Sequence record: SRR9188677_178
Reading direction: 5' to 3' (one strand)
DNA: 20,000 nucleotides
The first letter of the stretch is position 1; every line of letters starts with the position of its first letter. The notes under the pieces were generated by a model. The model saw only the letters and a list, made by a program, of their open reading frames with translations, ran no database searches and had not been told where the DNA came from. The position numbers and the translations under genes were made by a program. Shown piece by piece: positions 802 through 20,000 of the stretch.

Positions 802-848
802 TACGCATGGTTTAAGAGAGTGTAATAAAAACTATCGCTTCAAAAGTT

Positions 849-877
849 AAAGTCCATTTAGAATAAATGGACTTTTT
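849..877 (+). terminator. Intrinsic terminator-like hairpin after the TonB receptor gene
   Basis: AAAGTCCATTTA-GAA-TAAATGGACTTT is a perfect 12-bp stem with a T run at its 3' end. Confidence 0.65.
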
Positions 878-937
878 AACTTCGTACTCTTGATAAGAAG
901 ACTTGCTTTTGTAGAGTCTTAAAATCGGACGCGCCGA

Positions 938-972
938 AAGAAAGCGGCTTACATACTGCAAGCCGCTTCTTT
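938..972. terminator. Bidirectional terminator-like hairpin between convergent genes
   Basis: AAGCGGCTT (942-950) pairs with AAGCCGCTT (960-968), with an A-rich left flank and T-rich right flank. Confidence 0.55.
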
Positions 973-994
973 ATTTGATAGGTATGAGCAAATC

Positions 995-1022
995 AAACCT
1001 ATGACAAACGCATCATAGGTTT
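995..1022 (-). terminator. Hairpin just downstream of the membrane-protein gene
   Basis: AAACCTATGA-N8-TCATAGGTTT is a perfect 10-bp inverted repeat about 25 bp after the stop at 1047. Confidence 0.5.
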
Positions 1023-1046
1023 AGTGTTCTCCGCATAAAACACAAC

Positions 1047-2207: not shown

Positions 2208-2313
2208 AAACAATCCTCCCCTTGATTTACAAACGATTTATTACTCAACGATGAGCTTTTATTAATATTGGAATAATTAATTTGCAGCAATCATTAATAT
2301 ACCCTGAAAAATA

Positions 2314-2348
2314 AAAGAGACCCAAGGTGTTCCACCTTGGGTCTCTTT
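2314..2348 (-). terminator. Hairpin repeat copy R1; also a plausible terminator of the Mo-oxidoreductase gene
   Basis: AAAGAGACCCAAGGTG-TTC-CACCTTGGGTCTCTTT is a perfect 16-bp stem with a T-tract on the - strand. Confidence 0.8.
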
Positions 2349-2353
2349 ATAAA

Positions 2354-2384
2354 TGTAGCCGCTCTGTGAGTCGAACACAGCACC
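2354..2384 (-). pseudogene. tRNA 3'-half relic (T-arm plus degenerate acceptor strand), candidate att scar
   Basis: The - strand reads GGTG-CTGTG-TTCGACT-CACAG-AGCGGCTACA, a 5-bp T stem with a TTCGA loop. Nineteen nt are identical to 12359-12377. No D-arm or anticodon arm is present. Confidence 0.7.
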
Positions 2385-2414
2385 TGATAGCTTGAACCCT
2401 CTGCCTCTGTTTAT

Positions 2415-4541
2415 TCAAACCAGCTCGACCTCAACCAGGTTATCGCTAAACGTATTTGAATGACCCATATCGCCATACTCAGCGGAGCTGATACAGTTCA
2501 CAGTACCATTGTTGAGTTGGCGCCAATAGCCTAATGTTGCTACGACTATTCCAGGATTTACATCTGTAGTGACGCGTGCCAGACCCTCAAAAGCACCTCT
2601 GTCATTAAATACCTTTACCACCATTCCATCCTGAACGTCTCTTGCTAATGCATCGACCGGGTTGATCATCAGGTATTGCTCTCCCTGCAAGCGGATTTTG
2701 GATTCCATATTCGCATATGAGGAATTGATGAAGCCATGGCTTTTAGGAGAAATGATGTTCAAAGGGAACCTGGCTGCCAGCACAGCATTGGTATCAGCTG
2801 ATTCTCGACTTGCAACATATGCAGGTAATGGATCCAGATCTTCCCCGGGTTGAAAACCCTCGTACATCTGCCTGAAAGGCCCGGCAACGAAATTCTTCGC
2901 GCCTTCGACCATGAACATGCATTTACCAGTTGGGGTAGGGAAATTGCCCTGACGATGAGGTGCACGGTCGTCTTTGGTACCCACATTCAATCTGGCAAAC
3001 CCATGCTCACGCATATAGTTGAGATCAATCCCCTTGCAAGCGGGTGAACTCCAGTCGACATAATTCTGCAGGCACTCGCCATCAGTCCATTTGAAATTGT
3101 CTTCTTCGAATCCCAACCGTTTGGCTAAGCGGCGGAATATCTCATTATTTGGTAATGCCTCTCCGGGAGGCTCGATACATTTGGTGTTATAGGTGAGATA
3201 CAAATGGCCCCAGGATAAAATCATGTCTTCCTGCTCCGCCCCCATGGCTGCCGGCAAGATGATATCTGCATAAGAAGCCGTATCGGAAATGAAGTGATCG
3301 GCCACGATGGTGAACAGGTCTTCCCGCTTCAAGCCTTCGATTACCTTGTCGGTTTCAGGAGACTGTGTGACAGGATTGGTATTCCACACCATGATGGATT
3401 TAATGGGCGTTTCCAGAGGCGTTTCGCCAAGCAGGGCTCTGCCTAATTGCAAGATATTCACGACAGGCGTACCTTCGGGAATGAGATCCGGCCTGCAAAT
3501 CACATCAAATTTGTAGGGATGCTCCCAGACCGGGAATTGTAGCGCCCCTCCTCCCACATGACGCCAGGCACCGATAAGTGCAGGCAGACAGGTGACTGCC
3601 CGTATCGCCTGGCTTCCACCATAATTCCGTTCCAAAGCCACGCCTATGCGGATGGCTGCCGGGGGAGTTGAAGCATATTCACGCGCGAACAACCGAATCT
3701 CGTCTGCTGGTATACCGGTTATTTCGGCAGCCCATTCCGGAGTACAGGTTTTCGCCCTTTCCGCCAGCTCCGCATACCCGACCGTATATCTTTCGACATA
3801 ATCATGATCGACCAGATTTTCTTCAATGATTACGTTCATCATCGCCATCGCCAAAGCGCCATCGGTGCCCGGCTTGGGTGCAATATGCCAATCCGCTTCT
3901 TTCGCCGTTTTGGAAGCGAAAGAATCCACCACCACGATCTTCGCGCCTCTTTTTTGCGCCTCTTTAATGATGTGCCAGTGATGTAGATTGGTGGAGACAG
4001 AGTTACATGCCCAGATCACAATGAAATTTGCATGTATGAAACTTTCGGGGTCTACCCCGGCGGTAGGCCCAACAGTCAGTAACCAGGCAGTACAGGAGCC
4101 TTCACCACAAAAGGTCCTTTCGCATACGGTAGCGCCCAATCGGTTAAAAAAGGCATCCCCGCCGTTTAGTCCATGTACTAGTCCCTGATTTCCCAAATAA
4201 CTGACTGGCAGTATAGAGCGGGGACCATCTTCTTGAATAAGCGTTTGCCATCGATCAACAATAGTATCCAGCGCTTCATCCCAAGTGATTTGCTGAAATT
4301 GTTTGCTTCCTTTTGGCCCTACCCGCTTCATCGGGTATAGAAGACGGTTTGGATGATAATGCCGCTTTTCGTAATCCTTTAATTTTACGCACAAGCCGCC
4401 CCGCGTCATTGGATGATTAGGATTACCTGAAACCGACACCAGCTCCCCGTTCTTGACATGGAATTGCATGGAACAGGTATCGGGACAATCATGAGGACAC
4501 CCACCATGAAAGGTTTCAATTACATCTGCAACATCATTCAT
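2415..4541 (-). CDS. Molybdopterin (bis-MGD) oxidoreductase, DMSO-reductase superfamily, with N-terminal [4Fe-4S] motif
   Basis: CPHDCPDTC...LCVK Fe-S motif, RLLYPMKRVG, PKPGTDGALA, SDTASYADIILPAA, and a C-terminal molybdopterin-dinucleotide-binding domain (INPVDALARDVQDGMVVKVFNDRG). ATG 4541 follows an AAGGAG RBS. No Tat signal. Confidence 0.92.
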   Translation of the reverse strand: MNDVADVIETFHGGCPHDCPDTCSMQFHVKNGELVSVSGNPNHPMTRGGLCVKLKDYEKRHYHPNRLLYPMKRVGPKGSKQFQQITWDEALDTIVDRWQTLIQEDGPRSILPVSYLGNQGLVHGLNGGDAFFNRLGATVCERTFCGEGSCTAWLLTVGPTAGVDPESFIHANFIVIWACNSVSTNLHHWHIIKEAQKRGAKIVVVDSFASKTAKEADWHIAPKPGTDGALAMAMMNVIIEENLVDHDYVERYTVGYAELAERAKTCTPEWAAEITGIPADEIRLFAREYASTPPAAIRIGVALERNYGGSQAIRAVTCLPALIGAWRHVGGGALQFPVWEHPYKFDVICRPDLIPEGTPVVNILQLGRALLGETPLETPIKSIMVWNTNPVTQSPETDKVIEGLKREDLFTIVADHFISDTASYADIILPAAMGAEQEDMILSWGHLYLTYNTKCIEPPGEALPNNEIFRRLAKRLGFEEDNFKWTDGECLQNYVDWSSPACKGIDLNYMREHGFARLNVGTKDDRAPHRQGNFPTPTGKCMFMVEGAKNFVAGPFRQMYEGFQPGEDLDPLPAYVASRESADTNAVLAARFPLNIISPKSHGFINSSYANMESKIRLQGEQYLMINPVDALARDVQDGMVVKVFNDRGAFEGLARVTTDVNPGIVVATLGYWRQLNNGTVNCISSAEYGDMGHSNTFSDNLVEVELV

Positions 4542-4648
4542 CTTCCACTCCTTGAAAAGCAATCAATTGATAACAGCTAAAACAAGCAGACTAAAAACAA
4601 TAAGCCAGGCAATCTATTAAACATACTAACTTGTACGGGCTTAAAAAC

Positions 4649-4678
4649 AAAGACTCAAGGCATTAAGCTTGAATCCTT
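4649..4678. repeat. Hairpin repeat copy R2 (degenerate)
   Basis: AAAGACTCAAGGCATTAAGCTTGAATCCTT aligns without gaps to copies R4 and R5. Confidence 0.7.
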
Positions 4679-4759
4679 ATATTAGTATTGCTTTTCTGTA
4701 AAATGCGAGCATGCGCTCTCCTGAACTAGAGGTATGCAAAATTGATCTTCATGAATAAT

Positions 4760-4864
4760 CCAAGCCAACATAATGGCCAACGATTGTCACCGAGATTACC
4801 GTCGTATCATCCAATTCCTGATTTTCTGGCTATGTTTAAAGACGTGAGACTATGGGTAAGGTTT
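4760..4864 (+). repeat. Degenerate direct repeat B1
   Basis: Colinear shared blocks with 5425-5525: CCAAGCCAACATAA(T/C)GGCCA(A/T)CGATT, CCTGATT.T.TGGCTATG and GACTATG. Confidence 0.75.
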
Positions 4865-4934
4865 GAGGCTGCGGGCCTGAAGCTGAGTGATGTATTGGAT
4901 AGTTGTGATCTTTAAATATTAGTCTCCTAATGTT

Positions 4935-5375
4935 ATGGTGAATATGAATTTATTTAAGCCCTTATTTGTTACAGTATTTATCTTTCTATCAGCGATTGCG
5001 CACGCCGGCATTGACATCAAACCTATTCAACATCCAATTGATGCATGGTATGAAAACAAAATGGCTGAAGAGACAGTTTCAACAACTGCTGACATGCGTA
5101 ACATTACTAATGAAGCCAGGGTTAAGTGGGATTCAGAAATGAATATAGTCTACAAGCGGCTCATGAAAAGATTGAATTCGACCCAGCAAGTGGCGCTTAG
5201 GAAAGCTCAACAACAATGGCTGAAGTACAGAGATACCGAAGGTAAAGCTATTAGTGAAATTATCTCATCACAGCAAGGCACTATTCACCAATTAACCGGC
5301 ACAAACTTAGGCATGCAGCTAGTACGTTCCCGAGCATTGAATCTGCTCGCATATGAACAAGAGTTTTCGAAATAA
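4935..5375 (+). CDS. Secreted LprI/DUF1311-like (lysozyme inhibitor family) protein
   Basis: Signal peptide ending AIAHA, plus the family-type motifs WDSEMNIVYKRLM and LRKAQQQWLKYRD. An alternative start exists at 4944. Confidence 0.8.
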   Translation: MVNMNLFKPLFVTVFIFLSAIAHAGIDIKPIQHPIDAWYENKMAEETVSTTADMRNITNEARVKWDSEMNIVYKRLMKRLNSTQQVALRKAQQQWLKYRDTEGKAISEIISSQQGTIHQLTGTNLGMQLVRSRALNLLAYEQEFSK

Positions 5376-5424
5376 TATAATCAAGCTATTCCATCTCCCG
5401 CCTGGATAAGTCCTGACTTCCACA

Positions 5425-5525
5425 CCAAGCCAACATAACGGCCATCGATTTGTCATGGGAAGCTGAATCGATCAGCCCCTGATTGTTTGGCTATGACTCA
5501 AAACGAGTGACTATGAGCAGGCTTT
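5425..5525 (+). repeat. Degenerate direct repeat B2
   Basis: See B1. Its left flank (about 5389-5434) also matches 7969-8009. Confidence 0.75.
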
Positions 5526-5559
5526 ACAGTTTGTGAATGATTTTTGAGTATTAAATGGT

Positions 5560-6609
5560 TTAAGCTGGTTTTATTAGCACCTGCAAATCATTGCCGCCGG
5601 ACAGGCTTCTATAAGAAGAGTTTATTTGTTCATGCGGTACACCCAACGCTACTGCACTCGCTGCATCCAATCGCGCAACCATTTCAGGGGGCAAACTGAT
5701 ATCCAAAGCACCTAAGGTGGCATCTAATTGTTCTACTGTACGAGGTCCTAATATTGGTATGATTGAAGTTGTCGATCTAGCGGCCTTGTCTAGCAACCAG
5801 GCAATAGCAATGTGGGTTGGACTAGCCCCCAACTCATCTGCAATGGACAAAATCGTATTGAGCAATTCAGTTTCTTTTTCTGACTTTTCAGTATGGACCA
5901 GCATCCCAAGCTTAGTTAAGCGAGTGTCCACATGTTGATCCCGATACTTGCCTGTCAGAAAGCCTCCACCAAGCGGTGACCAGGTGGTAACTCCCAACCC
6001 TAAAGACTCTGACATTGGGATCAGCTCTCGATCTGGCGAACGTTCTGCCAAGCTGTATTCAATCTGAATGCCGATGATGGGAGACCACCCTTTCAAATCT
6101 GCCATCAAGTCCGCCCGTGCAATCCGCCATGCAGGAAAGTTGGAAAGGCCCGCATAAATTACTTTCCCGCTGCGCACCAAATCATCTAATCCACGCAGGA
6201 TTTCTTCCATAGGCGTGACACCATCACTGATATGCACCCAGTAAAGGTCAATGCGATCCGTTTTCAGCCGCTTTAAGCTTTCCTCAACAGCGCGCACCAT
6301 GTTCTTACGGCTGTTACCGGTTCTGGAAATCCCGGCATCGGGTGCAGTTGCATTGCTATATTTGGTTGCAACGACAAATTGATCCCTATCCGAGGCAATG
6401 AAATCACCTAATAATGACTCTGACTCACCGCGTTGATATGCGTTTGCAGTATCAAAGAAATTCCCACCCGCATTTACATACTGATCAAAAATCTTTTTAG
6501 CCTCTTCAGGCGCAGCGCCATGCCCCCACCCTGTACCGAAGTTACCCGTGCCCAACGCTAACTCAGACACTCTCAATCCAGAGTTCCTGCCAAATACTTT
6601 AAATTTCAT
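5560..6609 (-). CDS. Aldo/keto reductase
   Basis: SGLRVSELALGT N-terminus. Catalytic tetrad context FFDTANAY (D,Y), ATKY (K) and LYWVH (H), plus SLKRLKTDRIDLY and WSPLGGGFLTGKY. Confidence 0.93.
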   Translation of the reverse strand: MKFKVFGRNSGLRVSELALGTGNFGTGWGHGAAPEEAKKIFDQYVNAGGNFFDTANAYQRGESESLLGDFIASDRDQFVVATKYSNATAPDAGISRTGNSRKNMVRAVEESLKRLKTDRIDLYWVHISDGVTPMEEILRGLDDLVRSGKVIYAGLSNFPAWRIARADLMADLKGWSPIIGIQIEYSLAERSPDRELIPMSESLGLGVTTWSPLGGGFLTGKYRDQHVDTRLTKLGMLVHTEKSEKETELLNTILSIADELGASPTHIAIAWLLDKAARSTTSIIPILGPRTVEQLDATLGALDISLPPEMVARLDAASAVALGVPHEQINSSYRSLSGGNDLQVLIKPA

Positions 6610-6630
6610 ATGCGTTCTTTATTCTTGATA

Positions 6631-7203
6631 CTACTCATTCAAAGTCTTCTTTTTCGAGGTATCCAGAATTTCTTCTGATAGCTCACTCGTGCCTGCGGCT
6701 CTAGCCAATATCAATGCACCCACCCATTGAGAAAACATGGCGATAGAGTTCTCGCGCTTTTCTTGCTCAGATTCGCCAGGAACAATCTTTGATAGAAGCT
6801 CAACGACTGACTCAATACTACCTTCGAAAACTTTTTGAACTGCGACATCATGGCGTGACACTTCAGGCGCCAATGTTGAAAACACACATGTTGTAGCTAA
6901 CTCGTCTCTATTTTTGGTTGAGAGATAAGAGTTGCCGATGCGAGCAAGAGGATTCTCAATTTCAGGATTGGCTATATGCTCTTCCCATCTTTTTAGAGTT
7001 TTATCGCAAGCTCGTTGGCAAGCTTGAGCGATCAAATCCTCTTTTGACTGGAAGTTCTTATAAAACCCGCCGACAGTCAATCCAGCATTTTTCATCAAAT
7101 CAGCGACACCAATACCATCAAACCCATGCTCTTTAAACAAGATTGATGCAGTGTCGAGTACCAGTTCACGATTCTCTAGCGATTTAGCTCTACTTACTCT
7201 CAT
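6631..7203 (-). CDS. TetR/AcrR-family transcriptional regulator
   Basis: N-terminal HTH LFKEHGFDGIGVADLMKNAGLTVGGFYKNFQSKEDL. Confidence 0.93.
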   Translation of the reverse strand: MRVSRAKSLENRELVLDTASILFKEHGFDGIGVADLMKNAGLTVGGFYKNFQSKEDLIAQACQRACDKTLKRWEEHIANPEIENPLARIGNSYLSTKNRDELATTCVFSTLAPEVSRHDVAVQKVFEGSIESVVELLSKIVPGESEQEKRENSIAMFSQWVGALILARAAGTSELSEEILDTSKKKTLNE

Positions 7204-7251
7204 CAGCTTTTTTCCACATTGGATGCAACTATTTTACTGTGACTTTCGGTA

Positions 7252-7761
7252 TTACTTATTTAAAAGGGATTTAACCGCATCGATACCCGCTTGCGCACAA
7301 GCAACATCTTGATCAGGCATCCCTCCACTGACGCCCACAGCGCCTAAAAACTCTTTGCCAGAACTAAAAGGAATACCCCCACCTAAAGTAACGAAACCAG
7401 GTAAGTTAGCCAGACCTGGCGCTGGCCCACCTTTTTTATCCTTACCAAAAGAAAATTCCTCAAGCGCGCTTGTTGGTAGCTGCATGCCAGCAGAATTTAA
7501 CGCTTTGAGTTTTGATAGCTCAGCGGAAGCAATATAAGCGCCATTCATACGCTGAAAATAGATTGGATTAGCGCCTGCATCAACGATAGTAATGCTCATT
7601 TTCCAACCTTCCTTTGTAGCTTTGGCTTGGCAACCTGCGGCAATCTTTTGCGCTGTTTCAAGATTAAGTACAGGCTGGGCTTCAAATGCATGCGCTTGAA
7701 AACTGACACTCGCTGCGGCAAATGCCAGATTGATGAATAAATGTTTGGGATTCATATCCAT
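7252..7761 (-). CDS. GlcG/HbpS-family (haem-binding-like) exported protein
   Basis: Signal peptide ending FQAHA, with ITIVDAGA...RMNGA and GGIP...GAVGVSGG.PDQD..CA family motifs. Confidence 0.85.
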   Translation of the reverse strand: MDMNPKHLFINLAFAAASVSFQAHAFEAQPVLNLETAQKIAAGCQAKATKEGWKMSITIVDAGANPIYFQRMNGAYIASAELSKLKALNSAGMQLPTSALEEFSFGKDKKGGPAPGLANLPGFVTLGGGIPFSSGKEFLGAVGVSGGMPDQDVACAQAGIDAVKSLLNK

Positions 7762-7788
7762 GTCCTTTAGTAAATGGAAACAGCCATA

Positions 7789-7859
7789 AGATTACGACCG
7801 TAATCTAATAATAAAGGGGCTTCTTGCATAAGTCAAATTTAGATTATGAATATAATCTA
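7789..7859 (-). promoter_or_regulatory. Sigma70-type promoter flanked by two palindromic operators (likely sites for the encoded TetR)
   Basis: - strand TTGACT (7836-7831)-N17-TATTAT (7813-7808). Palindromes AGATTACG-AC-CGTAATCT (7789-7806) and TAGATTAT-GAAT-ATAATCTA (7840-7859) share AGATTA-N6-TAATCT. Confidence 0.75.
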
Positions 7860-7898
7860 TTTTGCAAAATCCTATGAAATATTTGCGCAGCTGTAACC

Positions 7899-7927
7899 AA
7901 GACCCTAGACGTGAACCTAGAGTCTCT
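7899..7927. repeat. Hairpin repeat copy R3 (degenerate)
   Basis: AAGACCCTAGACGTGAACCTAGAGTCTCT matches 24/29 positions of the consensus AAGACCCAAGGCGTTAACCTTGGGTCTCT. Confidence 0.7.
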
Positions 7928-7968
7928 CATCTATAACTGCCTATCTCACAATCGAATTTAGCCCAAAA

Positions 7969-8009
7969 TTCCTCACATCTGGGTAATCCTAGCTCCCCTC
8001 CAAGCCAAC
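7969..8009 (+). repeat. Partial repeat B3
   Basis: CTGGGTAA-TCCTAGCTCCCCTCCAAGCCAAC versus CTGGATAAGTCCTGACTTCCACACCAAGCCAAC (5402-5434). Confidence 0.55.
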
Positions 8010-8140
8010 GACGTGTGGGATTATCCTGATAAGGTTGTAGGATAATCTCATGTAATAAGTTATCTAGTTATCTCTGTGTTGACGAGGTGTTACAAGACAT
8101 GTAGGTTGTGAACTATAAATTTAATTTTTACTAATATTTA

Positions 8141-9655
8141 ATGAACACTATTTCAGAAAATATCAAAATTGCAAGAACAGGCATAGAAGGGTTAGATGTT
8201 GTGCTTAAAGGCGGATTGCCTGCCGGCCGTTTTTATCTATTAGAAGGTGCCCCTGGCTCTGGAAAAACGACAGTTGCTATACAGTTTTTGATGGAAGGTT
8301 TGTCCAATGGTGAAAAGGTACTTTATGTAACTTTGTCAGAAACTGCTGAAGAATTATATGCAGTCGGGCAATCACATGACTGGAATTTAGAAACAATGCC
8401 ACTGTTCGAGTTAGCACAGGCAGATGTTGCACTAAGTTTTGATCGTGAACAAAGTATTTTGCATCCTTGGGAGGTTGAGCTTTCCGAGACTATTAAATTA
8501 ATCACTGATAAAGTTGAAGAAATAAAACCGAGTAGAGTTGTTTTTGATAGCTTGTCAGAAATGCGATTGCTAGCACAGGACTCGCTGCGCTATAGACGAC
8601 AGCTATTGATGCTTAAACAACACTTTGCCTCAAAAAAAATTACGGTTTTACTCGTTGATGATATGACGGGAAATGCTGGCGAACGTGATGTGCATCTACA
8701 CAGCCTCTGTCATGGAGTGATTACGCTAGAACGAAAAACACTTGAGTTCGGTGGAGCAACTAGGAAATTACAAGTTCAAAAGCTAAGAGGTGTTGATTTC
8801 ATAGCTGGCTTCCACGACTTCGCGATAAAAAAAGGTGGAGTAAATGTTTATGCAAGATTAATTGCCTCTAAATTTCATACTGAATTTTTAGAGGAGCCTG
8901 TTCAATCTGGAATAGATGAATTAGACAAATTGCTAGATGGAGGCATGCTAAAAGGCACTACTACACTGATTACTGGCCCTGCTGGCAGCGGTAAAACGAA
9001 TATTGCCCTTCAGTATGTTGCCGAAACTTGCAAGCGTGGTGAGCGGGCCGTTATCTATGAGTTTGATGAGCGTATCGGCACATTACTTACCAGATCAAAA
9101 CTTTTAGGATTTGATCTACAACAATATATAGCTTCAGGTCAATTAAACATCAGGCAGATGGATCCAGCCGAGATTACACCAGGTGAATTTGCGTGTTTAG
9201 TCAAAAAGGAGGTCGAGGAATTTGATGTGAAAATGATAGTAGTGGATAGCTTGGCAGGTTACATGTCCTCTATGCCACAAGAAAAGCAACTACTTCTTCA
9301 AATGCATGAAATGCTGTCTTATCTCAACCAACAAGGTATCGTTACCTTATTAATCAATCCGCAACAAAGCCTTGTAGGAACGATGTCGGTGACAGGTTTG
9401 AATGTTAGCTATATAGCCGATACGGTAATTTTATTACGCTTCTTTGAATTTGAAGGCAGGATCAGGAAAGCCATATCCATCATCAAAAACCGTGGTGGTT
9501 CTCATGAAGATACCATTCGTGAACTGAGAATCGACTCTAAAGGATTACGCATTGGTGAAGTGTTAGATGGCTTCAAGGGCGTGTTAACCGGTGTACCAGA
9601 TTACAAAGGCAGTTCAGATCAACTATTAGAACCACGCACAGATGATACCCAATAG
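8141..9655 (+). CDS. KaiC-like double-domain RecA-superfamily ATPase
   Basis: Two ATPase domains with Walker A GAPGSGKT and GPAGSGKT, TGIEGLD/SGIDELDKLLDGG starts, Walker B VVFDS/IVVDS, KLRG/KNRG arginine-finger regions, and VSYIADTVILLR at the KaiC phosphosite-equivalent position. Confidence 0.9.
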   Translation: MNTISENIKIARTGIEGLDVVLKGGLPAGRFYLLEGAPGSGKTTVAIQFLMEGLSNGEKVLYVTLSETAEELYAVGQSHDWNLETMPLFELAQADVALSFDREQSILHPWEVELSETIKLITDKVEEIKPSRVVFDSLSEMRLLAQDSLRYRRQLLMLKQHFASKKITVLLVDDMTGNAGERDVHLHSLCHGVITLERKTLEFGGATRKLQVQKLRGVDFIAGFHDFAIKKGGVNVYARLIASKFHTEFLEEPVQSGIDELDKLLDGGMLKGTTTLITGPAGSGKTNIALQYVAETCKRGERAVIYEFDERIGTLLTRSKLLGFDLQQYIASGQLNIRQMDPAEITPGEFACLVKKEVEEFDVKMIVVDSLAGYMSSMPQEKQLLLQMHEMLSYLNQQGIVTLLINPQQSLVGTMSVTGLNVSYIADTVILLRFFEFEGRIRKAISIIKNRGGSHEDTIRELRIDSKGLRIGEVLDGFKGVLTGVPDYKGSSDQLLEPRTDDTQ

Positions 9656-12113: not shown

Positions 12114-12316
12114 GGATTGCGATTGACTCCTAACTCAGCTACTGATTCTGCTCCTAAATTAAGCGATCAACAATTTCCAGAACCTTAACCTTTAATTGTT
12201 CTTGGCCAGGACGAGGTGCTTCAGCAACAGCAAGCCGAATTAAATCCTCTCAAGACACTAAGGTCTCTTGAAATTTGATTTCGAATAATATCCAGTTTAT
12301 CTCACTTCAAACAAAT

Positions 12317-12345
12317 AAGACCCAAGCCGTTAACTTTGAGTCTTT
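12317..12345. repeat. Hairpin repeat copy R4
   Basis: AAGACCCAAGCCGTTAACTTTGAGTCTTT, directly adjacent to a tRNA 3' relic as in R1. Confidence 0.75.
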
Positions 12346-12350
12346 ATCAT

Positions 12351-12388
12351 TGGTCACCCTCTGTGAGTCGAACACAGGACCAACTGAT
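12351..12388 (-). pseudogene. tRNA 3'-half relic ending in CCA, candidate att scar
   Basis: The - strand reads ATCAGTTGGTC-CTGTG-TTCGACT-CACAG-AGGGTGA-CCA: an intact T-arm and an acceptor 3' strand one nt shorter than canonical, with no 5' half. Confidence 0.75.
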
Positions 12389-12475
12389 AACTTATTGAGC
12401 CGACCATTTGATTTTTCTGTATATAAACTCATCAAATGATCGCTCAGCCGAAAGCCACTACAACATAATATCCAT

Positions 12476-13267
12476 ATGAAGATTGCCACTTACAACATTA
12501 ATGGGATCAATAATCGGATTGAGCGATTATTGGAGTGGTTAGCCGAAACAGAGCCTGATGCAGTGTGTCTCCAGGAGCTTAAGTCAGAAACGAATAAGTT
12601 TCCAGTCAAGGCTATTGAGAAAGCGGGTTATGGTGCTTTATGGCAAGGTCAAAAAGCCTGGAACGGTGTCGCTATACTTAGTAGAGATAGTGAGCCACTT
12701 TTAATACGCCGCAGCTTACCCGGAGACCCCGCTGACAAACAAGCAAGGTATATTGAAGCGGCTGTAAATGGATTGATTCTGGCCAGTTTATATTTGCCTA
12801 ACGGCAATCCCCAACCGGGCCCAAAATTTGACTATAAATTAGCCTGGTTTCAGCGGTTGAACGTTCATGCTAAAGAGCTTTTAGATACCGGTTTGCCTGT
12901 GGTTCTCGCTGGCGACTATAACGTTGTTCCAACCAATCTAGATATATACAAAACCACTTCATGGGACGACGATGCCCTTTTACAGCCTGAAAGTCGTACA
13001 GCATTCGCAGATCTGGTTAAGCAAGGCTGGACAGATGCATTGAGGTCATGTCATCCCAATGAAAGCATTTACACATACTGGGACTACAAACGAAATCGCT
13101 GGTCTCGAAATGCCGGATTGAGAATCGACCACTTGTTACTGAGCCCGGTATTGGCCGCAGGTCTCCGAAATGCAAATGTGGATAAGGATTATAGAGGCAT
13201 AGAAGGTGCCAGTGACCACGCGCCAACATGGGTGGAGTTTCATTGGGAGCCTGTGATTACAAACTAA
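12476..13267 (+). CDS. xth: Exodeoxyribonuclease III (AP endonuclease family)
   Basis: MKIATYNING, CLQELK, SLYLPNGN, GDYNV, YTYWDY...GLRIDHLL and SDHAP motifs. Confidence 0.93.
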   Translation: MKIATYNINGINNRIERLLEWLAETEPDAVCLQELKSETNKFPVKAIEKAGYGALWQGQKAWNGVAILSRDSEPLLIRRSLPGDPADKQARYIEAAVNGLILASLYLPNGNPQPGPKFDYKLAWFQRLNVHAKELLDTGLPVVLAGDYNVVPTNLDIYKTTSWDDDALLQPESRTAFADLVKQGWTDALRSCHPNESIYTYWDYKRNRWSRNAGLRIDHLLLSPVLAAGLRNANVDKDYRGIEGASDHAPTWVEFHWEPVITN

Positions 13268-13313
13268 TTTTTTTCATGAACTCCATTTGAGTTGAGATTC
13301 ATGCAAATCAAGC

Positions 13314-13706
13314 TTAGCCTTTATCAATTTTCTCAAAAATTTTAGTTAATTTGTCTTCCAAAGTTGCTGAGGTGAATGGCTTCACTACATAACCACTGGC
13401 TTTGGCTTGGGCGGCGGCAATAATATTTTCTTTTTTTGCTTCCGCCGTCACCATAAGAACAGGCAAATTACACAATTTAGGGTCAGCACGAATGTTTTGA
13501 AGCATAGTAAGACCATCCATATTAGGCATATTCCAATCAGACACTACAAACTCGAAATTACCGTCGCGAAGCTTTTCTAGCGCTTCAACACCATCTTCAG
13601 CTTCCTCTACATTGTTATAGCCGAGTTCCTTCAGTAAATTACGTACAATTCTTCGCATTGTAGAGAAATCGTCTACCACCAGAAATTTAGTATTTGGGTT
13701 ACCCAC
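13314..13706 (-). CDS. cheY: Chemotaxis response regulator CheY
   Basis: [64 protein letters not shown] closely match enteric/betaproteobacterial CheY. GTG start after a GGAG RBS. Confidence 0.93.
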
Positions 13707-14318
13707 TGTTACTCCACTGTTCTAAAAAGGTTTGATACTGGTTGATTCAAAATTGAGCTATTTGCAGCTTACTTGGGTGGAACTGTTGAAAAATAAATAG
13801 TGGGATTGTGCAGACTTTGAAAAAAAGTCATGAAAAGTAGATATGTATGCTAAATCAGTTTAACAGCACAGGCATTGTTAAAACATCCAATTTCATAATA
13901 TGAGTGGTAATACAACTAAAGAGTTTTACGACGGTGGGCACAAGAATGAATCGATGTAATCATTCATCGGTGCTACAAGGTAAGGAACTCCGGAAGAGTG
14001 TTCAGGTTTGATAGGTTGTTATTAGATAACATCGTAATATATGCACTAATGAAATGAGGACTACATCGGTGCGATTTTTGCTAATTTAGATGTTTCAATA
14101 GTGATATTATTTCCTACATTCTTCATGAAAGTATAGTTGTGACTGCATAATCGTGGGCCATCTTTTGATGGCTTTTTTTCATTCATTGATGAGCAACCAC
14201 ATATTTAAATTGGGTTGGTACAAGAAGCATTTTTCACAGCCATTATTTCTCGATATTGAGAGTAACAGAAAGGCTGTTTTTTTACTGAAGATTTATTTAA
14301 TAAAGCCGTTAAACGTGA

Positions 14319-16280
14319 ATGAAGTTCAGATCTCAAAATCGAGTTATTTATGCCTACGTCGCAATAATTGTTATACAGGGATGCACCAGTGTTTTTGCCG
14401 CATCCACCGATGTCACTGACATTCCTTTTGAAAACCTTATACAGACAGACATTATCACCGCATCGAGGATCGGCCAGCAGATTAGTAACGCGCCCTCTGC
14501 AGTCAGCACAGTCACTGCGGAAGATATTCGCAAATTTGGTTACCGAACTTTGGCTGACATTATCGGCAGCATGCGCGGGTTATATACAACCAATGACCGC
14601 ACCTACACCTATATGGGGGGGCGCGGATTCGGCCGGACCGGCGATTATGCTGGCAGGGTGATGTTGTTAATCGATGGCTACCAGGCCAATGACAATCTCT
14701 ACAACGCTGCCTACCTGGGCAATGACGGGCTACTGGATGCCGAGCTGATAGACAGGGTCGAATATGTTTCCGGCCCCGGTGGCGTCACTTATGGAAACGG
14801 CGCATTTTACGGCATCATTAATGTCATCACCAAAAAAGGCAGTGATATCAATGGAGTGCAAACTGCCCTGGATGCCGGCAGCTTTGGCAGCCAGAAGGAA
14901 CGGGTGACCTATGGCAAGACGTTGGCCAATGGCTTAAATATATTACTGTCAGCCTCACGGTTCGCCAGTGATGGCCAGACACATTATTATCCTGAATTTG
15001 ATTTCCCTGCCACCAATAATGGCCGAGCAGAAAACCTGGATGATGAGCGCAACCGACGTTTTTTTGGCAAGCTAATTTTTGATAAATGGACCTTAACAGG
15101 TGCATTCGTTAGCCGCCGTAAAAGTGATCCGACTGCACAGTTTGGTGCGGACTTTAATGTCAGCCCTAATTGGATCCAGGATAGCAACGGCTTTATCGAT
15201 CTCAAATACGACGCTGATTTCAACGCGCAGCATAAGGCTTCTTACCGAACCTATTATGGCCAGTATCAGTACCGTAGCCGTGCAGTGTTCACCGGGGAAT
15301 TTTATACGGAAAAAAATATGGGTCGCTGGTGGGGGGCAGAAGCAAAATTCACCAATACCAGCATCGCCAATCACAAGCTGCTCTATGGTGTCGAATACCG
15401 AAATGATTACCAGCAGGACTTTTACTTGCCAGATGCTTCGCTGGAGCACAGCCAGTACCTGATAAGTAGTTATGCGCAAGATGAATATCAGTGGCTGCGT
15501 AACGTGCGCTTGAATATGGGGGCTCGTTATGACTGCGGTGGAAAAAATGCCACTTTTGTCAGCCCGCGTGTGGCCGCTATTTATTCGGCAACCGAAGAAA
15601 CGGATGTGAAGGTTTCGTATGCTTCGGCATTCAGGAGACCGAATGTCTATGAGAAATACTATTCCGACCCCAGTTTTCTGCTACCGAACAGGAACCTGAG
15701 GAAAGAAACAGTGGATGCGACGGAATTGGTGATTGAAAGTCGTCCGGATAGCCAGACCAAAATACAGAATTCCTTTTTCTATTACACAACGCAAAACCTT
15801 ATATCCGCCAGCGAAGTAGGGGGACCAGGCATCATTCAGTATGGCAACTGGGATAAGGCCATCACCAGGGGGGCGGATATCGAGCTGGACCATTTCTGGA
15901 AATCTGGTATGCATCTGAAAACCAGTTATGCCTGGCAACTGGTTGAAGATGGCAATGGACAGTGGATGGTCAATTCACCCAGACATTTGTTCAAGTCCAA
16001 CTTTTCCATGCCATTACTCAGCAACCAGCTCTACCTCGGCGTGGAATTGCAATCGTTTGGCAAGCGTTTAAGCGAGCAGCGTAACGACATAGCTGGCTAC
16101 AGCTTAGTCAATGTCAGTCTGTCTTCCACACACCTGATTCCGCATGTGAATGTCAGTGCGACGGTGCGCAACCTGTTTGACCGCGATTATGCGATTGCCG
16201 CGTCGGGTTTCAATGCGCAGGAAACCATTCTTCAAGATGGCAGGAATATTTGGCTACAAATGGTGTATCAATGGCCATGA
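14319..16280 (+). CDS. TonB-dependent receptor (plug plus barrel) of the YfiR-associated type
   Basis: Signal peptide, ITASR...APSAVSTVTAEDIRKFGYRTLAD plug start, LLIDG and IDRVEYVSGPG..YG..A..GIINVITK plug motifs, and C-terminal VRNLFDRDY...GRNIWLQMVY. Confidence 0.9.
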   Translation: MKFRSQNRVIYAYVAIIVIQGCTSVFAASTDVTDIPFENLIQTDIITASRIGQQISNAPSAVSTVTAEDIRKFGYRTLADIIGSMRGLYTTNDRTYTYMGGRGFGRTGDYAGRVMLLIDGYQANDNLYNAAYLGNDGLLDAELIDRVEYVSGPGGVTYGNGAFYGIINVITKKGSDINGVQTALDAGSFGSQKERVTYGKTLANGLNILLSASRFASDGQTHYYPEFDFPATNNGRAENLDDERNRRFFGKLIFDKWTLTGAFVSRRKSDPTAQFGADFNVSPNWIQDSNGFIDLKYDADFNAQHKASYRTYYGQYQYRSRAVFTGEFYTEKNMGRWWGAEAKFTNTSIANHKLLYGVEYRNDYQQDFYLPDASLEHSQYLISSYAQDEYQWLRNVRLNMGARYDCGGKNATFVSPRVAAIYSATEETDVKVSYASAFRRPNVYEKYYSDPSFLLPNRNLRKETVDATELVIESRPDSQTKIQNSFFYYTTQNLISASEVGGPGIIQYGNWDKAITRGADIELDHFWKSGMHLKTSYAWQLVEDGNGQWMVNSPRHLFKSNFSMPLLSNQLYLGVELQSFGKRLSEQRNDIAGYSLVNVSLSSTHLIPHVNVSATVRNLFDRDYAIAASGFNAQETILQDGRNIWLQMVYQWP

Positions 16281-16786
16281 AGAAACCTCTGCTGTTGATG
16301 ATGGGCCTGCTGTGCCATCATGGCCATGCTCTTGCAGCGGCAATCCCCGAATTGGATATGCGCTCTGCCTACCTATATAACTTTGCTCAATTTACAGACT
16401 GGCCAGTCAATGATCATCCGACCTTCAATATCTGTACCTTGGAAAAAGTTAGCGATAGTATCAGCCCGGAAGTGCTGGCTAACAAAACGGTCCATGGAAA
16501 GAAAATCCGGCTTGCACGTTTTTCGGAATCGACGGATGCCTCCGAGTGCCAGTTGGTTTACCTAAATTCCTCAGACGCCGCCTATGTCGCAAAAATTGCC
16601 AAGATGCTGAGCACCGAGCATGTGCTGACCGTAGGGGAAGAATTTAACGGCAGCGGGCCTGGGATAATCAACTTGTCGATCAAGAACAACCGTCTAGTGT
16701 TTGATCTTGACCTCGCACGTGCGCGCAAAGCCAATATCTCTCTGAGTTCAAAATTGATTCCGCTTGCCCAGAAAGTGCATGAATAA
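16271..16786 (+). CDS. YfiR/DUF4154-family periplasmic protein
   Basis: SAYLYNFAQFTDWP...FNICT, CQLVY, VLTVGE, LVFDLDL..ARKANISLSSKLIPLA. ATG 16277 overlaps the upstream stop (ATGA); an alternative ATG is at 16271. Confidence 0.88.
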   Translation: MAMKKPLLLMMGLLCHHGHALAAAIPELDMRSAYLYNFAQFTDWPVNDHPTFNICTLEKVSDSISPEVLANKTVHGKKIRLARFSESTDASECQLVYLNSSDAAYVAKIAKMLSTEHVLTVGEEFNGSGPGIINLSIKNNRLVFDLDLARARKANISLSSKLIPLAQKVHE

Positions 16787-18906
16787 TGTTTTCTGCCAGA
16801 TTGAATAATCTGTCTATCCAGATTAAATTATTGATGGCCCAGGGTGTGGTGACGATTTCTGCCCTATTTGTGTTGTTGGCCATCGTTCTCGGCTACGGCT
16901 ACACCAGTTTCAGGAATGACTTGTACAATGACTTGGACACCCAGGCCACCATCATTGAACATAGCAGCACTGCCGCGCTGCTCTTTGATGACAAAAATGC
17001 AGCAAATGAAATATTGTCCACGTTAAATCTAATGGGCAGCATCAACCGCGCTTATCTCTTTCATGAGACTGGTCATTTGCTGGCCACCTATGACAAAAAT
17101 CAACATACCGTGCGCGCCTCCCAAATCCGCTTACCCGCGTTACGCAAATTGAAATCCAGTTTCAAAACGCATATCCTGACCCGGGATATCGTGTTTGATC
17201 ACCATGTAATCGGCACTATTTTTATAGAAGCAAATCTGGATAAATTGAATACCCGGCTCGGCCTGCTGGTCCTGGCGGTCATGATTGCTGCCTTCATAGG
17301 ACTGATCATCTCACTGCTAGTCTCAATTAGGATCAACAAATTTTTGACTCAACCCATTCTGGCCTTAACCAACCTGGTAGATAAAGTCTCCAGCAGTCAT
17401 GACTACACCGTACGTAGCCACCTGTTAACTAAAGATGAGATAGGCAGCCTGTCAGTAGGGATCAACGCCATGCTGCGCAGCATTGAGCAAAGGGATGAGC
17501 TGCTGGAAGCTGAGCTGGCCAAACAGAAGCAGGCGGAGAAAGCCCTTGACCGGCTGGCATATTTTGACACCGTTACCCAGCTGCCTAACCGACACTATTT
17601 CAACCAGCAATTGCAAAAGAAAATTATAGAGGCTGAGCGCCTCAACAAGGTCTGCTGCCTGATGTTCATTGATCTTGATGACTTCAAGGTCATCAATGAT
17701 ACCTATGGGCACCGGGTTGGCGACGAGTTGCTGGCGGATGTAGGGCATCGCCTTAAGGAAAACCTCAGGCCTGGCGATGAAGTATTCCGTATAGGCGGCG
17801 ATGAGTTCGCTATCCTGATTTCTGATAATAACCAGTTTTCCCATGCGCGGGAATTAGCCGCTAAAGTCATCCACAACTGTGCTGAAAAATTCATCATCAA
17901 TAACAATGACCTATATATCGGCGTCAGCATAGGTATTAGCGGTTCAACCCAGCCCGGCATACAGGCTACAGATTTGCTGCGCTCAGCCGACAGCGCAATG
18001 TATAGGGCAAAAAATGAGGGCAAGAATAATTTCAAACTCTTTTCCAAGGAAATTGATGATGAATCTCATTTCAGGAACTATCTGGAAACCGCGCTTAGAA
18101 GTGCACTGGGACGCAATGAATTTGAAGTGTATTACCAACCCATCATCAACCTGAAGTCCGAGCAGATCGTCGGTTTTGAGGCTTTGCTAAGGTGGCATGA
18201 ACCCATTTATGGAGATATCAGCCCCGGCATTTTCATTCCATGCGCGGAGCGTATCGGTGTAATTATCCCGATAGGTGAATGGGTGTTACGTCAAGCCTGC
18301 CTGCAACAGAAAAAGTTGCGAGATGAGTTTGGTATCGATTTCATGATGAACGTGAATCTTTCAGGGAGACAGCTGCGAGAGTTTGATGTGGTGCATAAGA
18401 TCCTAGATGTTGTGTCGGAAACCGGCATCAACCCGACCGCCTTGAATATTGAGCTGACTGAAAGCGTGCTGATGGATAACTCCCAGTCTACGATCAATAA
18501 ATTCCATGTCTTGCGCGCTGCAGGCGTAAGCATTTCCATTGATGATTTTGGTACCGGCTATTCATCATTAAGCTACCTGAAGCGGTTCCCAATCAATACA
18601 ATCAAGATTGATCGCAGTTTTATCATGGATATCTCGCACGATTCAGAGGACCAGGCCATTACGCTGGCAATCATTGCCCTGGCAAACACGCTCAAACTCA
18701 CCGTTGTGGCTGAAGGTGTTGAGACGGCTGAACAAAAGAGGATTTTAAGGCAAAATAATTGCGAGAAGGCTCAAGGCTATTTATTTAGTAAACCATTACC
18801 ATCGCCTGCACTAGAAAGTGTGGTTAGAGCTAATTTCTCACTAAATACTCTTGAAGAGCATAATCAAAACTTGATTAATTATGTGGACTCATCAAATTTG
18901 GATTAA
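16786..18906 (+). CDS. Membrane-bound diguanylate cyclase/phosphodiesterase (periplasmic sensor, HAMP, GGDEF, EAL)
   Basis: Two TM segments around an AALLFDD..AA.EIL sensor domain, HAMP (DEIGSL), LDDFKVINDTYGH, RPGD I-site then RIGGDEF, GFEALLRW, IDDFGTGYSSLSYL and VVAEGVET. TAATG coupling with the yfiR-like gene. Confidence 0.93.
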   Translation: MFSARLNNLSIQIKLLMAQGVVTISALFVLLAIVLGYGYTSFRNDLYNDLDTQATIIEHSSTAALLFDDKNAANEILSTLNLMGSINRAYLFHETGHLLATYDKNQHTVRASQIRLPALRKLKSSFKTHILTRDIVFDHHVIGTIFIEANLDKLNTRLGLLVLAVMIAAFIGLIISLLVSIRINKFLTQPILALTNLVDKVSSSHDYTVRSHLLTKDEIGSLSVGINAMLRSIEQRDELLEAELAKQKQAEKALDRLAYFDTVTQLPNRHYFNQQLQKKIIEAERLNKVCCLMFIDLDDFKVINDTYGHRVGDELLADVGHRLKENLRPGDEVFRIGGDEFAILISDNNQFSHARELAAKVIHNCAEKFIINNNDLYIGVSIGISGSTQPGIQATDLLRSADSAMYRAKNEGKNNFKLFSKEIDDESHFRNYLETALRSALGRNEFEVYYQPIINLKSEQIVGFEALLRWHEPIYGDISPGIFIPCAERIGVIIPIGEWVLRQACLQQKKLRDEFGIDFMMNVNLSGRQLREFDVVHKILDVVSETGINPTALNIELTESVLMDNSQSTINKFHVLRAAGVSISIDDFGTGYSSLSYLKRFPINTIKIDRSFIMDISHDSEDQAITLAIIALANTLKLTVVAEGVETAEQKRILRQNNCEKAQGYLFSKPLPSPALESVVRANFSLNTLEEHNQNLINYVDSSNLD

Positions 18907-18926
18907 AGAATATCCCGAAAAATGAG

Positions 18927-19334
18927 CCCGTTGAGAAGCTTAACAATACGGTAGGTCAATTCATCGCTTGGAGGAAAGCAACGGGGCTGTCCCCCAAAAA
19001 CAAAAGCAGAACCTTTGGCATCGCTTATGACAATCCAGATACAGCTGAACCTTCACAATTTCGCTTTGACATTGCTGGCGAAGTTAAAAGTGATGTCCCA
19101 GAAAATACGCATGGAATCGTTATGAAAACCATTCTTGGTGGCCGTTGCGCAGTAGTAAGGCATTTGGGATCACATAATCGCTTGGGAGAGTCAATCTATC
19201 CCTTATACCGGGAATGGCTGCCTAATAGTGGCGAAGAATTACGTGACTACCCACTTTACTTTCAATATTTGAATTTACTACCAGATATTGCTGAGGCAGA
19301 TCTAGTGACAGATATCTATCTACCTCTGAAGTAA
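18927..19334 (+). pseudogene. 5'-truncated GyrI-like effector domain (C-terminal part of an AraC/Rob-type regulator)
   Basis: The frame of ORF 19122..19334 stays open upstream (PVEKLNNTVGQFIAWRKATGLSPKNKSRTFGIAYDNPDTAEPSQFRFDIAGEV...). There is no ATG/GTG/TTG between the in-frame TAA at 18876 and 19122. It ends with the GyrI-type LVTDIYLPLK. Confidence 0.75.
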
Positions 19335-19421
19335 TCAAACAAGACGTCGACTCGACGACCTAATGAAACCGACGCCAGCCAGAACATCTAAAGGGGACAA
19401 GTCGTCGAGTAAGTGGGAATT
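19335..19421 (+). other. Degenerate attC-like stem immediately after the GyrI relic stop codon
   Basis: TCAAAC-AAGACG directly follows the TAA. ACTCGACGAC (19350-19359) and GTCGTCGAGT (19401-19410) form a perfect inverted repeat. The terminal GTT box is missing. Confidence 0.45.
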
Positions 19422-19437
19422 TCCGATATTAATCAAC

Positions 19438-19935
19438 TCATAGACCAGAACTTTTTTGTACAATTTTCAATCCTTCGTTTTCTGAAGGCGGTTCAAAAAA
19501 GTTAGTTACATGATAGAACACAGCCTCATTATCAAACTGCGCACGTTCTGGCTGTTCATGTCTTCGCTTCGCTATCTGTAAAAGACATTCCTCATTACTT
19601 AGATCAAGATAAATAAGCTCGTGGTTGCATTCAATTTCATTACAAAGTTGTTTAAACCAACCCCTTTGATTAATAGTATTTGCTGGGAAATCTATAACAA
19701 CATCAGTGCCGGTTTTTAGAATCGACTGAACGTGCAACTTAACAAAAGCTTTTATTCGAGATGAATACGCTAGATAGTCGTCAAAGGAATTTATTTCGTT
19801 TGGATAATGTGCAGATAACCACTCGTCCTCTGATATCAATACAGCGTTTTTCTCTCGCGCAATCGTTTTTGATGTTGTAGTTTTCCCAGCTCCCATCTTT
19901 CCACAGAAGAAAATTAAATTACCTTTTTGATTCAC
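19438..19935 (-). CDS. AAA_33-type P-loop kinase/ATP-binding protein
   Basis: LIFFCGKMGAGKTT Walker A, LISEDEW, DVVIDFPANT..QR and FE.P...EG. GTG 19935 follows an AAGGA RBS and is preferred to the upstream TTG, which lies in the repeat flank. Confidence 0.85.
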   Translation of the reverse strand: MNQKGNLIFFCGKMGAGKTTTSKTIAREKNAVLISEDEWLSAHYPNEINSFDDYLAYSSRIKAFVKLHVQSILKTGTDVVIDFPANTINQRGWFKQLCNEIECNHELIYLDLSNEECLLQIAKRRHEQPERAQFDNEAVFYHVTNFFEPPSENEGLKIVQKSSGL

Positions 19936-19983
19936 AGCATATCCTTGAGTTTTGCTAAAGTTGATACTAACACCACAAAACAA

Positions 19984-20000
19984 AAAAGACCCAAGGCGTT
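19984..20000. repeat. Hairpin repeat copy R5 (left arm; cut by window edge)
   Basis: AAAAGACCCAAGGCGTT matches the left arm and loop of R1-R4. Confidence 0.7.

Follow-up and report, generated by a model that had tools for sequence, protein, structure and literature searches.

We analyzed a stretch of 20,000 nucleotides from the sequence record SRR9188677_178 (this whole stretch is "the window" below), in which copies of a hairpin repeat lie between the genes. A reader who saw only the letters (the sequence-only reading) had reported five intergenic hairpins with the same orientation, and had proposed that a tRNA 3' end and its terminator were duplicated repeatedly as gene modules accumulated beside a tRNA gene. 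We recovered all five hairpins. A regular expression identifies them at 2318-2344 (R1), 4651-4676 (R2), 7900-7925 (R3), 12318-12343 (R4), and, cut by the end of the window, 19977-20000 (R5). They are also found by nhmmer with a profile that was built only from the copies in related genomes (E = 1.8e-25 for R2, 1.8e-12 for R3, 2.1e-8 for R4, 4.7e-6 for R1, and 9e-4 for the truncated R5). According to the list of open reading frames (ORFs), every copy is intergenic; R5 touches the first possible start codon of an AAA_33 gene. The literal 29-mer consensus from the sequence-only reading matches only R4 if up to 3 mismatches are allowed (none of 200 shuffles gave a match), which means that divergence among the copies is greater than that reading implied.

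These hairpins belong to a longer repeat. In full, the unit measures about 230 nt and is composed of a conserved arm (150 nt), a tRNA-like part with strong decay in many copies, and the hairpin; the arm lies upstream of many of the hairpins, in the sense of the tRNA. All of the units in the window are on the minus strand. R2 (4643-4871; model positions 2-228 in nhmmer) is a full unit, with a decayed tRNA-like part between its arm and its hairpin. R3 (7899-8009; model positions 104-221) is a partial unit whose hairpin stem shows a compensated change. R1 (2309-2399) joins the hairpin to a decayed 3' part of a tRNA with anticodon CAT, or tRNA(CAT), at 2354-2399, and has no CCA end. R4 (12308-12400) joins the hairpin to a tRNA(CAT) 3' part that includes the CCA (12351-12400). 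R5 (19977-20000) is just the cut hairpin. Two other units had been overlooked: an arm with no hairpin at 5377-5526 (model positions 8-160, E = 4.3e-25), and a tRNA-Lys-type unit at 927-1024, in which a hairpin at about 944-975 is joined to a decayed 3' part of tRNA-Lys (E = 1.8e-11 with a second profile, for units of this type). The count of five hairpins was correct, but there are seven units, and at about 230 nt the unit is longer than had been read.

The claim that R1 and R4 carry part of a tRNA 3' end also stands: the T-arm motif CTGTGAGTCGAACACAG follows both R1 (at 2364) and R4 (at 12361) on the plus strand, and these fragments match tRNA(CAT). ARAGORN did not call any tRNA in the window. 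The CCA is kept in R4 and lost in R1, which gives only two points for a decay with distance from the anchor. Separately, a further short hairpin with a similar outer stem (AGACT...AGTCT) is present at 905-930, between the terminator of a TonB receptor gene and the tRNA-Lys-type unit. It may be a strongly decayed unit.

Between these repeats lie several gene modules, whose names, as given by the sequence-only reading, were confirmed by Pfam. Module A (1047-2213, minus strand) encodes a 388-amino-acid aromatic-rich protein with no Pfam or NCBIfam family. Module B (2415-4562, minus strand) is a molybdopterin oxidoreductase of the dimethyl sulfoxide (DMSO) reductase family according to Pfam and NCBIfam, with R1 at its 3' side. 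A single-gene cassette for an LprI-like protein (4935-5375, plus strand) is followed by genes for an aldo/keto reductase, a TetR regulator, and an HbpS/GlcG-like protein (5560-7761, minus strand), and then by a KaiC-like ATPase and a PAS hybrid histidine kinase (8141-12113, plus strand). A composite region at 12476-19361, with no single strand assigned, includes an xth-like nuclease, a CheY-like receiver, a TonB receptor-YfiR-GGDEF/EAL block, and a relic at 18927-19361; nhmmer found no internal unit in this region at E ≤ 10. The last cassette (19438-19983, minus strand) is an AAA_33 or zeta-toxin-like kinase with a G+C content of 36%. The modules point both ways and their G+C content is 36-49%, as compared to about 50% in core DNA.

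Two of these genes have wider distributions. The module A protein has 94 relatives among 120 pattern-matched stretches of our genome collection, with 52-98% identity among the 80 that were retained, and these are from Methylophilaceae, Methylobacter, Undibacterium, Colwellia/Thalassotalea, and others. For the CheY-like receiver (13314-13706), DNA that is 72-79% identical can be found in almost all genomes of the genus Methylophilus, including, on another contig, the genome that is nearest to the window (G001). This match is apparently a conserved paralogue.

Relatives of the window show where the hairpin comes from. In three genomes (G006, G034, and G036) and at a locus of a fourth (L038), an intact tRNA(CAT) gene is directly followed by exactly this hairpin. 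Because the intact gene directly precedes the hairpin in these relatives, the hairpin is, as judged from sequence, the native terminator of tRNA(CAT). This bears out the idea that a tRNA end was duplicated along with its terminator. The similarity of the fragments to tRNA(CAT) begins at the anticodon stem and reaches the CCA; the hairpin comes next, and often another 25 or so conserved bases. The T-arm motif is present seven times in G001, always (7/7) on one strand and in two clusters: two copies are in the locus that corresponds to the window, and five are within 46 kb of each other on another contig. The last of these five is an intact 79-nt tRNA with anticodon CAT. ARAGORN labels tRNA(CAT) as tRNA-Met, and the gene is just downstream of rpoD. 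Its position and acceptor stem may be similar to those of the lysidine tRNA-Ile2 of E. coli.

The predicted fold of the hairpin depends on the strand. One of the pairs in its stem, a G-U, can form only on the tRNA-sense strand, and the predicted RNA is more stable on that strand for 80 of the 83 distinct copies (mean of -15.6 vs. -9.9 kcal/mol), but the copies are related by descent, so these are not independent tests. By this comparison the hairpin looks like an intrinsic terminator, and we predict from the fold that the copies still act as terminators on the tRNA-sense strand.

The sequence-only reading had expected the cognate tRNA to lie just beyond the end of the window. This did not hold: in G001, the gene at that position is tRNA-Lys(UUU), which has a different T-arm, while tRNA(CAT) is located elsewhere, downstream of rpoD. 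G001 matches the window at 98% identity from 937 to 19266. The identity begins at 937, within the tRNA-Lys-type unit at 927-1024, and G001 lacks both 1-936 and 19267-19976; the left break is at a unit, and the replacement on the right spans from inside the relic to the hairpin. The AAA_33 cassette is absent from G001. At the position of R5, G001 has an equivalent hairpin as the end of a full unit. From this unit toward the anchor come a fragment of tRNA-Lys, an islet with one gene, and the intact tRNA-Lys(UUU), the last of these about 1.7 kb beyond the R5 equivalent. The islet (L017, 731-2191) has a 422-amino-acid ORF on the minus strand between two copies of tRNA-Lys sequence. On one side is the intact tRNA-Lys(UUU) with its terminator, and on the other is a 90%-identical copy of the 3' part of tRNA-Lys with the terminator. 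Given the tRNA-Lys-type fragment at 927-1024, which marks the distal boundary, and the tRNA-Lys gene beyond R5 in G001, the array appears to be bounded by tRNA-Lys sequences at both ends (with the proximal end as read in G001) and to be partitioned by units copied from tRNA(CAT). The tRNA-Lys-type fragments, too, span from the anticodon stem through the terminator, and the two tRNAs have identical anticodon stems and adjoining bases. Direct repeats of the 3' part of a target tRNA, in the same orientation as that tRNA, are what is expected of an additive island that is anchored at a tRNA gene.

If the hairpins were a generic family, similar to repetitive extragenic palindromic (REP) elements or to common terminators, or if the unit were a family of small RNA genes with no relation to mobility, then the copies should be dispersed and in both orientations, as for REPs and bacterial interspersed mosaic elements (BIMEs). 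Instead, they are clustered and co-oriented. A strict hairpin pattern identified 3-10 sites per genome in five genomes and the reversed pattern, as a control, identified 0. In the complete genome G009, nine of the 10 strict sites were in two clusters, and with the full unit as the query, 19 of the 20 matches were in two arrays: 11 beside tRNA-Lys(UUU) and 8 beside tRNA(CAT), with each array oriented like its own tRNA. The full-unit query gave the same kind of clustering in G001, G006, G010, and G012. This genome-wide count, which the sequence-only reading had suggested as a check, refutes the idea of a REP-like dispersed repeat. Among stretches of metagenomes, 38 contain an exact 23-nt core; 37 of these hold more than one unit, with a uniform orientation in 36 of the 37 and with up to 11 units in 10 kb. 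Units of the CAT type and the Lys type are intermixed, with the same orientation, in the arrays at both tRNAs. The 115-bp core of the arm is present in 22 of 41 genomes of the genus. When 201 genomes sampled from the family were searched, 18 had the unit: 16 of the 18 sampled from Methylophilus and 2 from one other genus.

What could speak for a terminator family or a small RNA is that the hairpin is shaped like an intrinsic terminator and that the unit includes one open frame and a conserved 150-nt stretch. We dropped the small-RNA candidate, as there were no Rfam matches in the whole window at E ≤ 1 and no conserved structure: RNAalifold gives a consensus fold for the unit of just -0.81 kcal/mol, with 8 pairs and almost no covariation. 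The 54-amino-acid frame at 4752-4916 was rejected as a gene because insertions and deletions in the alignment of the units break it. Given that each genome has copies at just two loci, and each locus has them on just one strand, we consider this explanation to be very improbable and largely refuted by the distribution of the copies.

We also tried the arm as the relic of a gene, by comparing the six-frame peptides and the DNA of four units to 19 loci (16 that were retrieved via a search for integrases and 3 arrays that hold an integrase). Only other units matched, and in this comparison the arm had no similarity to integrase genes. In one copy in G009, the arm is joined to an undecayed 3' part of tRNA(CAT), so the arm is tied to the CAT-type attachment region. 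An arm is also found within 300 nt after 17 of 60 distinct Lys-type units, but these 60 are a biased sample, as many of the loci were retrieved through the arm itself. In G006, which is the smallest of the complete genomes, an intact tRNA-Lys is directly followed by one copy of the arm without a hairpin (L039, 1254-1650). This may be a nearly empty state of the locus, or the arm may belong to the flank of tRNA-Lys.

Several of the window's modules recur in relatives together with units, and often beside the other tRNA. In G003 and G010, module A is in the tRNA-Lys array. In G009, it is in the array of tRNA(CAT), directly after an AAA_33 gene and a hairpin; in these relatives, it stands alone in tRNA-Lys or tRNA-Met arrays. 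The molybdenum (Mo) oxidoreductase of module B, with R1 at its 3' side, is in the tRNA-Lys array in both G001 and G003, and in G003 an extra module of 2.1 kb lies between two hairpins. In G034, the same oxidoreductase is 1.5 kb from tRNA(CAT) with units on both sides (the order is tRNA-orf-unit-orf-unit-Mo-unit). A 91%-identical copy of LprI and its arm adjoins tRNA(CAT) in G036, and the AAA_33 gene and the relic are in the tRNA-Lys array of G032. So the breakpoints coincide with repeats for module A, the Mo oxidoreductase, LprI, AAA_33, and the break at 937. The KaiC-kinase module is found as one block (8066-12106) in G003, G026, and G027.

Other arrays give some idea of what else accumulates in them. 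In G001, about 17 small ORFs are inside the tRNA(CAT) array (L020, 514-8125), all on the tRNA-sense strand and with no unit between them; they include members of DUF6882, DUF1877, GNAT, and DUF6985, and many have no family. Cassettes in G009 (L052, 8113-12212 and 14895-17156) carry a set of TonB receptor, FecR, and extracytoplasmic function (ECF) sigma factor genes and the nitric-oxide reductase NorB. NorB is also in the tRNA(CAT) array of G001 (L020, 12277-14559). This agrees with the location of norB on islands that was described earlier for Methylophilus (PMC4109929; statements about published work, here and below, refer to excerpts of the cited papers).

We propose that the window lies in an additive genomic island of a Methylophilus chromosome, and that successive events of site-specific integration extended this island downstream of a tRNA gene; we put the probability of this at about 70%. 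The observations that it builds on are where the repeats come from, that they are clustered in one orientation, where the array is bounded, and how the modules form a mosaic across species. The incoming elements would carry an attachment region in which a tRNA's 3' part, beginning at the anticodon stem, is joined to the terminator of that tRNA. Each integration would leave one more co-oriented copy and would displace the older cargo away from the tRNA. Two types of attachment region would occur together, one copied from tRNA(CAT) (the hairpin, usually with the 150-nt arm) and one copied from tRNA-Lys(UUU). The integrases would have been lost afterwards, with some later shuffling. The majority of the cargo units lack an integrase and would then be fixed or decaying remnants, or else cassettes that can be mobilized in cis or in trans. 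We infer that tyrosine integrases were responsible, and the order of events and the route by which CAT-type units came into the tRNA-Lys array are likewise inferred.

A number of observations weigh against serial integration. Of these, the arrival of CAT-type units at a tRNA-Lys locus is not explained by it: in G001, the cognate tRNA(CAT) is on another contig, away from the window's array. Copies that consist of just the arm are not predicted by simple integration. The modules are only partly delimited by repeats, since there are breaks at about 13.3, 13.7-14.3, 18.8-18.9, and 19.27 kb with no unit, and pieces of 12476-19361 are held separately in relatives; here the sequence-only reading went too far. 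The KaiC-kinase and TonB-YfiR-GGDEF/EAL blocks are placed elsewhere in G003, G026, G027, and G023, and near the displaced blocks there is only a tRNA-Lys fragment (G003 and G023) or a weak partial unit (G027). The Mo oxidoreductase is present in at least 29 of the 41 genomes of the genus, and in G012 the TonB receptor of the window is its direct neighbour, with no unit in between, so not all of the "cargo" is foreign. Integrases are scarce as well. Pfam identified none among the ORFs of the window (the modules had indeed been described as lacking integrases), and the PF00589 matches of G001, G003, G006, and G009 include none within the arrays of G003, G006, and G009. A P4-like integrase in the tRNA(CAT) array of G001 (L021:4632-5834), within an element with ArdA, UmuDC, and GmrSD genes, has relatives at 49% identity or above in just four of the 41 genomes. 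Finally, contigs from four public sequencing runs show no clean joints that would indicate an excised circle or an empty site. The joints that were listed have sides of less than 30 letters and connect one unit to another, as the repeats themselves predict, so they are not evidence of excision; rare forms would be invisible in contigs.

The P4-like integrase in the array of G001 speaks for site-specific integration, as do its relatives on unit-bearing contigs, which are found in three of those four genomes, including G008 and G035; for either type of attachment, it is only a candidate. We rejected another candidate, the XerD that is about 7 kb from tRNA(CAT) in G001 (L085, G001:C2:494001-506000, 175-8668), because it is an equivalog-level match to XerD and belongs to the block rpoD-dnaG-tsaD-plsY-xerD-ogt on the 5' side of the tRNA. 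In G003, G006, and G009, the distance between the tRNA (or its hairpin) and a recombinase with an equally strong match to PF00589 is about 7-9 kb. In 'Ca. Methylopumilus', the pairing of tRNA-Met(cat) with xerD was used to define a 'tycheposon' (PMC10872708). The pairing of tRNA(CAT) with xerD in Methylophilus looks like housekeeping synteny, so we urge caution: in this genus, xerD close to tRNA-Met(CAT) belongs to a conserved neighbourhood of housekeeping genes.

Instead of serial integration, the mosaic may have arisen mainly by homologous recombination between units, which would be passive patches of homology, including inversions between arrays with opposite orientations. In G009 and in G010, the two arrays run in opposite directions, and an inversion between them would swap the distal cassettes and preserve the co-orientation. 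Core-like genes such as the Mo oxidoreductase and the TonB receptor abut the arrays or sit within them, and in related genera an inversion has been tied to a tRNA-Met island (PMC10872708). Exchange between inverted arrays could explain both the shared cassettes and the trapped core genes. However, the copies of the unit are only about 75-85% alike outside of the hairpin, which makes them poor substrates, and recombination leaves the initial duplication of the tRNA 3' parts unexplained. As the main source of the mosaic, we consider it rather improbable.

Another possibility is an active, Methylophilus-specific system that resembles an integron. In such a system, the ~230-nt unit, often beside a tRNA-Lys tail, would be the recombination site and would work like attC. 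Single genes would be excised along with a unit as small circles and would be re-inserted at tRNA(CAT), at tRNA-Lys, or at resident units, by an integrase that is supplied in trans from elsewhere. There are dense arrays of single-ORF cassettes that are each followed by a unit, in G009 (where 11 units are found in 15 kb at spacings of 0.5-0.7 kb), in G034, and in the metagenome stretches. The same pairs of gene and unit are found at two different tRNA loci, and conservation is much stronger in the hairpin, its loop included, than in the remainder of the unit. Terminator function alone can account for that conservation, though. There is no recombinase next to either tRNA: no PF00589 match, and so no IntI-type integrase, adjoins the insertion point, and the upstream neighbours are rpoD for tRNA(CAT) and, in G009, the ffh-like gene of an SRP54-type GTPase for tRNA-Lys. 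Instead of cassettes that are co-oriented and each end in attC, the window has cassettes in both directions, with no common promoter orientation, and its repeats are tRNA-derived units. None of 12 whole short metagenome contigs had a terminal overlap, so we found no circles among them, nor did the run contigs have clean joints. The unit had no match in phages, plasmids, or viral contigs. The sequence-only reading's description of an integron-style array is thus not supported, and an active system of this kind seems unlikely to us. If cassettes are mobile in trans after all, then this would be a second, tRNA-based route to the gene shuffling that is known from integrons.

With accretion at tRNA genes as our preferred explanation, the window gives a nucleotide-level view of how the flexible genome is organized in a common genus of plant- and water-associated methylotrophs. 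This organization involves two tRNA genes and repeats from the tails of both, along with a 230-nt unit that is restricted to the genus and can be used as a marker with which cassettes are found and delimited automatically. This extends the coarser earlier reports of tRNA hot spots in Methylophilaceae, such as the islands at these sites in genome comparisons (PMC4109929).

The sequence-only reading had left it undecided if such an arrangement was already described. In its general form, it was: additive accretion that is anchored at a tRNA gene is already described for Methylophilaceae, Alteromonas, Dehalococcoides, and Prochlorococcus. We did not find a description of the ~230-nt unit in the literature on Methylophilus, genomic islands, and tRNAs (as represented by titles, the starts of abstracts, and the excerpt of PMC4109929). 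The closest relative is fGI-2, an additive flexible genomic island (fGI) of 'Ca. Methylopumilus' with recurring repeats of the end of a tRNA-Lys gene (PMC10872708). It is from the same family and shares with our arrays the tRNA-Lys anchor, recurring direct repeats of the 3' end, mostly hypothetical cargo, and very variable sizes of cassettes (330 bp to 42 kb in fGI-2). It differs in that its anchor is tRNA-Lys(CTT) with a 20-bp repeat, whereas here the anchor is tRNA-Lys(UUU) and the repeats, with the terminator included, are about 100 nt long. Here, a second type of repeat, from tRNA(CAT) and with the 150-nt arm, is also intermixed.

The additive fGIs of Alteromonas are similar in that cassettes pile up at tRNA or tmRNA genes, with a partial tRNA repeat downstream, and in that the same cassettes are found in different species; it is a different taxon, and no conserved long unit with a terminator is reported in the excerpt (PMC4898812). 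Downstream of ssrA in Dehalococcoides, there are many direct repeats of the 3' end of the RNA gene and islands in tandem, and some of these islands lack integration genes and were proposed to be cis-mobilizable. However, the target there is a tmRNA, a serine recombinase module is beside attL, and the repeats are 20 bp (PMC3146451). Accretion among integrative and conjugative elements (ICEs), integrative and mobilizable elements (IMEs), and cis-mobilizable elements (CIMEs) likewise involves the loss of the integrase and transfer genes while the att sites are kept, and the stacking of elements that integrate at a resident att site; tRNA-Lys genes are among the places where this happens. CIMEs are usually decayed ICEs or IMEs of several kb (PMC5704250), whereas many of our units flank single small genes, and we saw no relaxase or remnant of conjugation genes in the window.

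The tycheposons of Prochlorococcus integrate at tRNAs, and side-by-side elements are separated by partial tRNAs, with degenerate remnants and more partial tRNAs in islands (10.1101/2020.12.28.424599). Their hallmark genes are not in the window nor in most of our arrays: Pfam identified neither a tyrosine recombinase nor a replication module (primase/helicase) among the ORFs of the window and of one array of G009. Chromosomal integrons share the arrays of small cassettes that are each followed by a repeated site, with cassettes common to several species, but in our case there is no IntI beside the array, there are no attC-type sites, and the repeats derive from tRNAs. What is new here is the genus-specific unit and the twist that two tRNA genes, and not one, have contributed the repeats.

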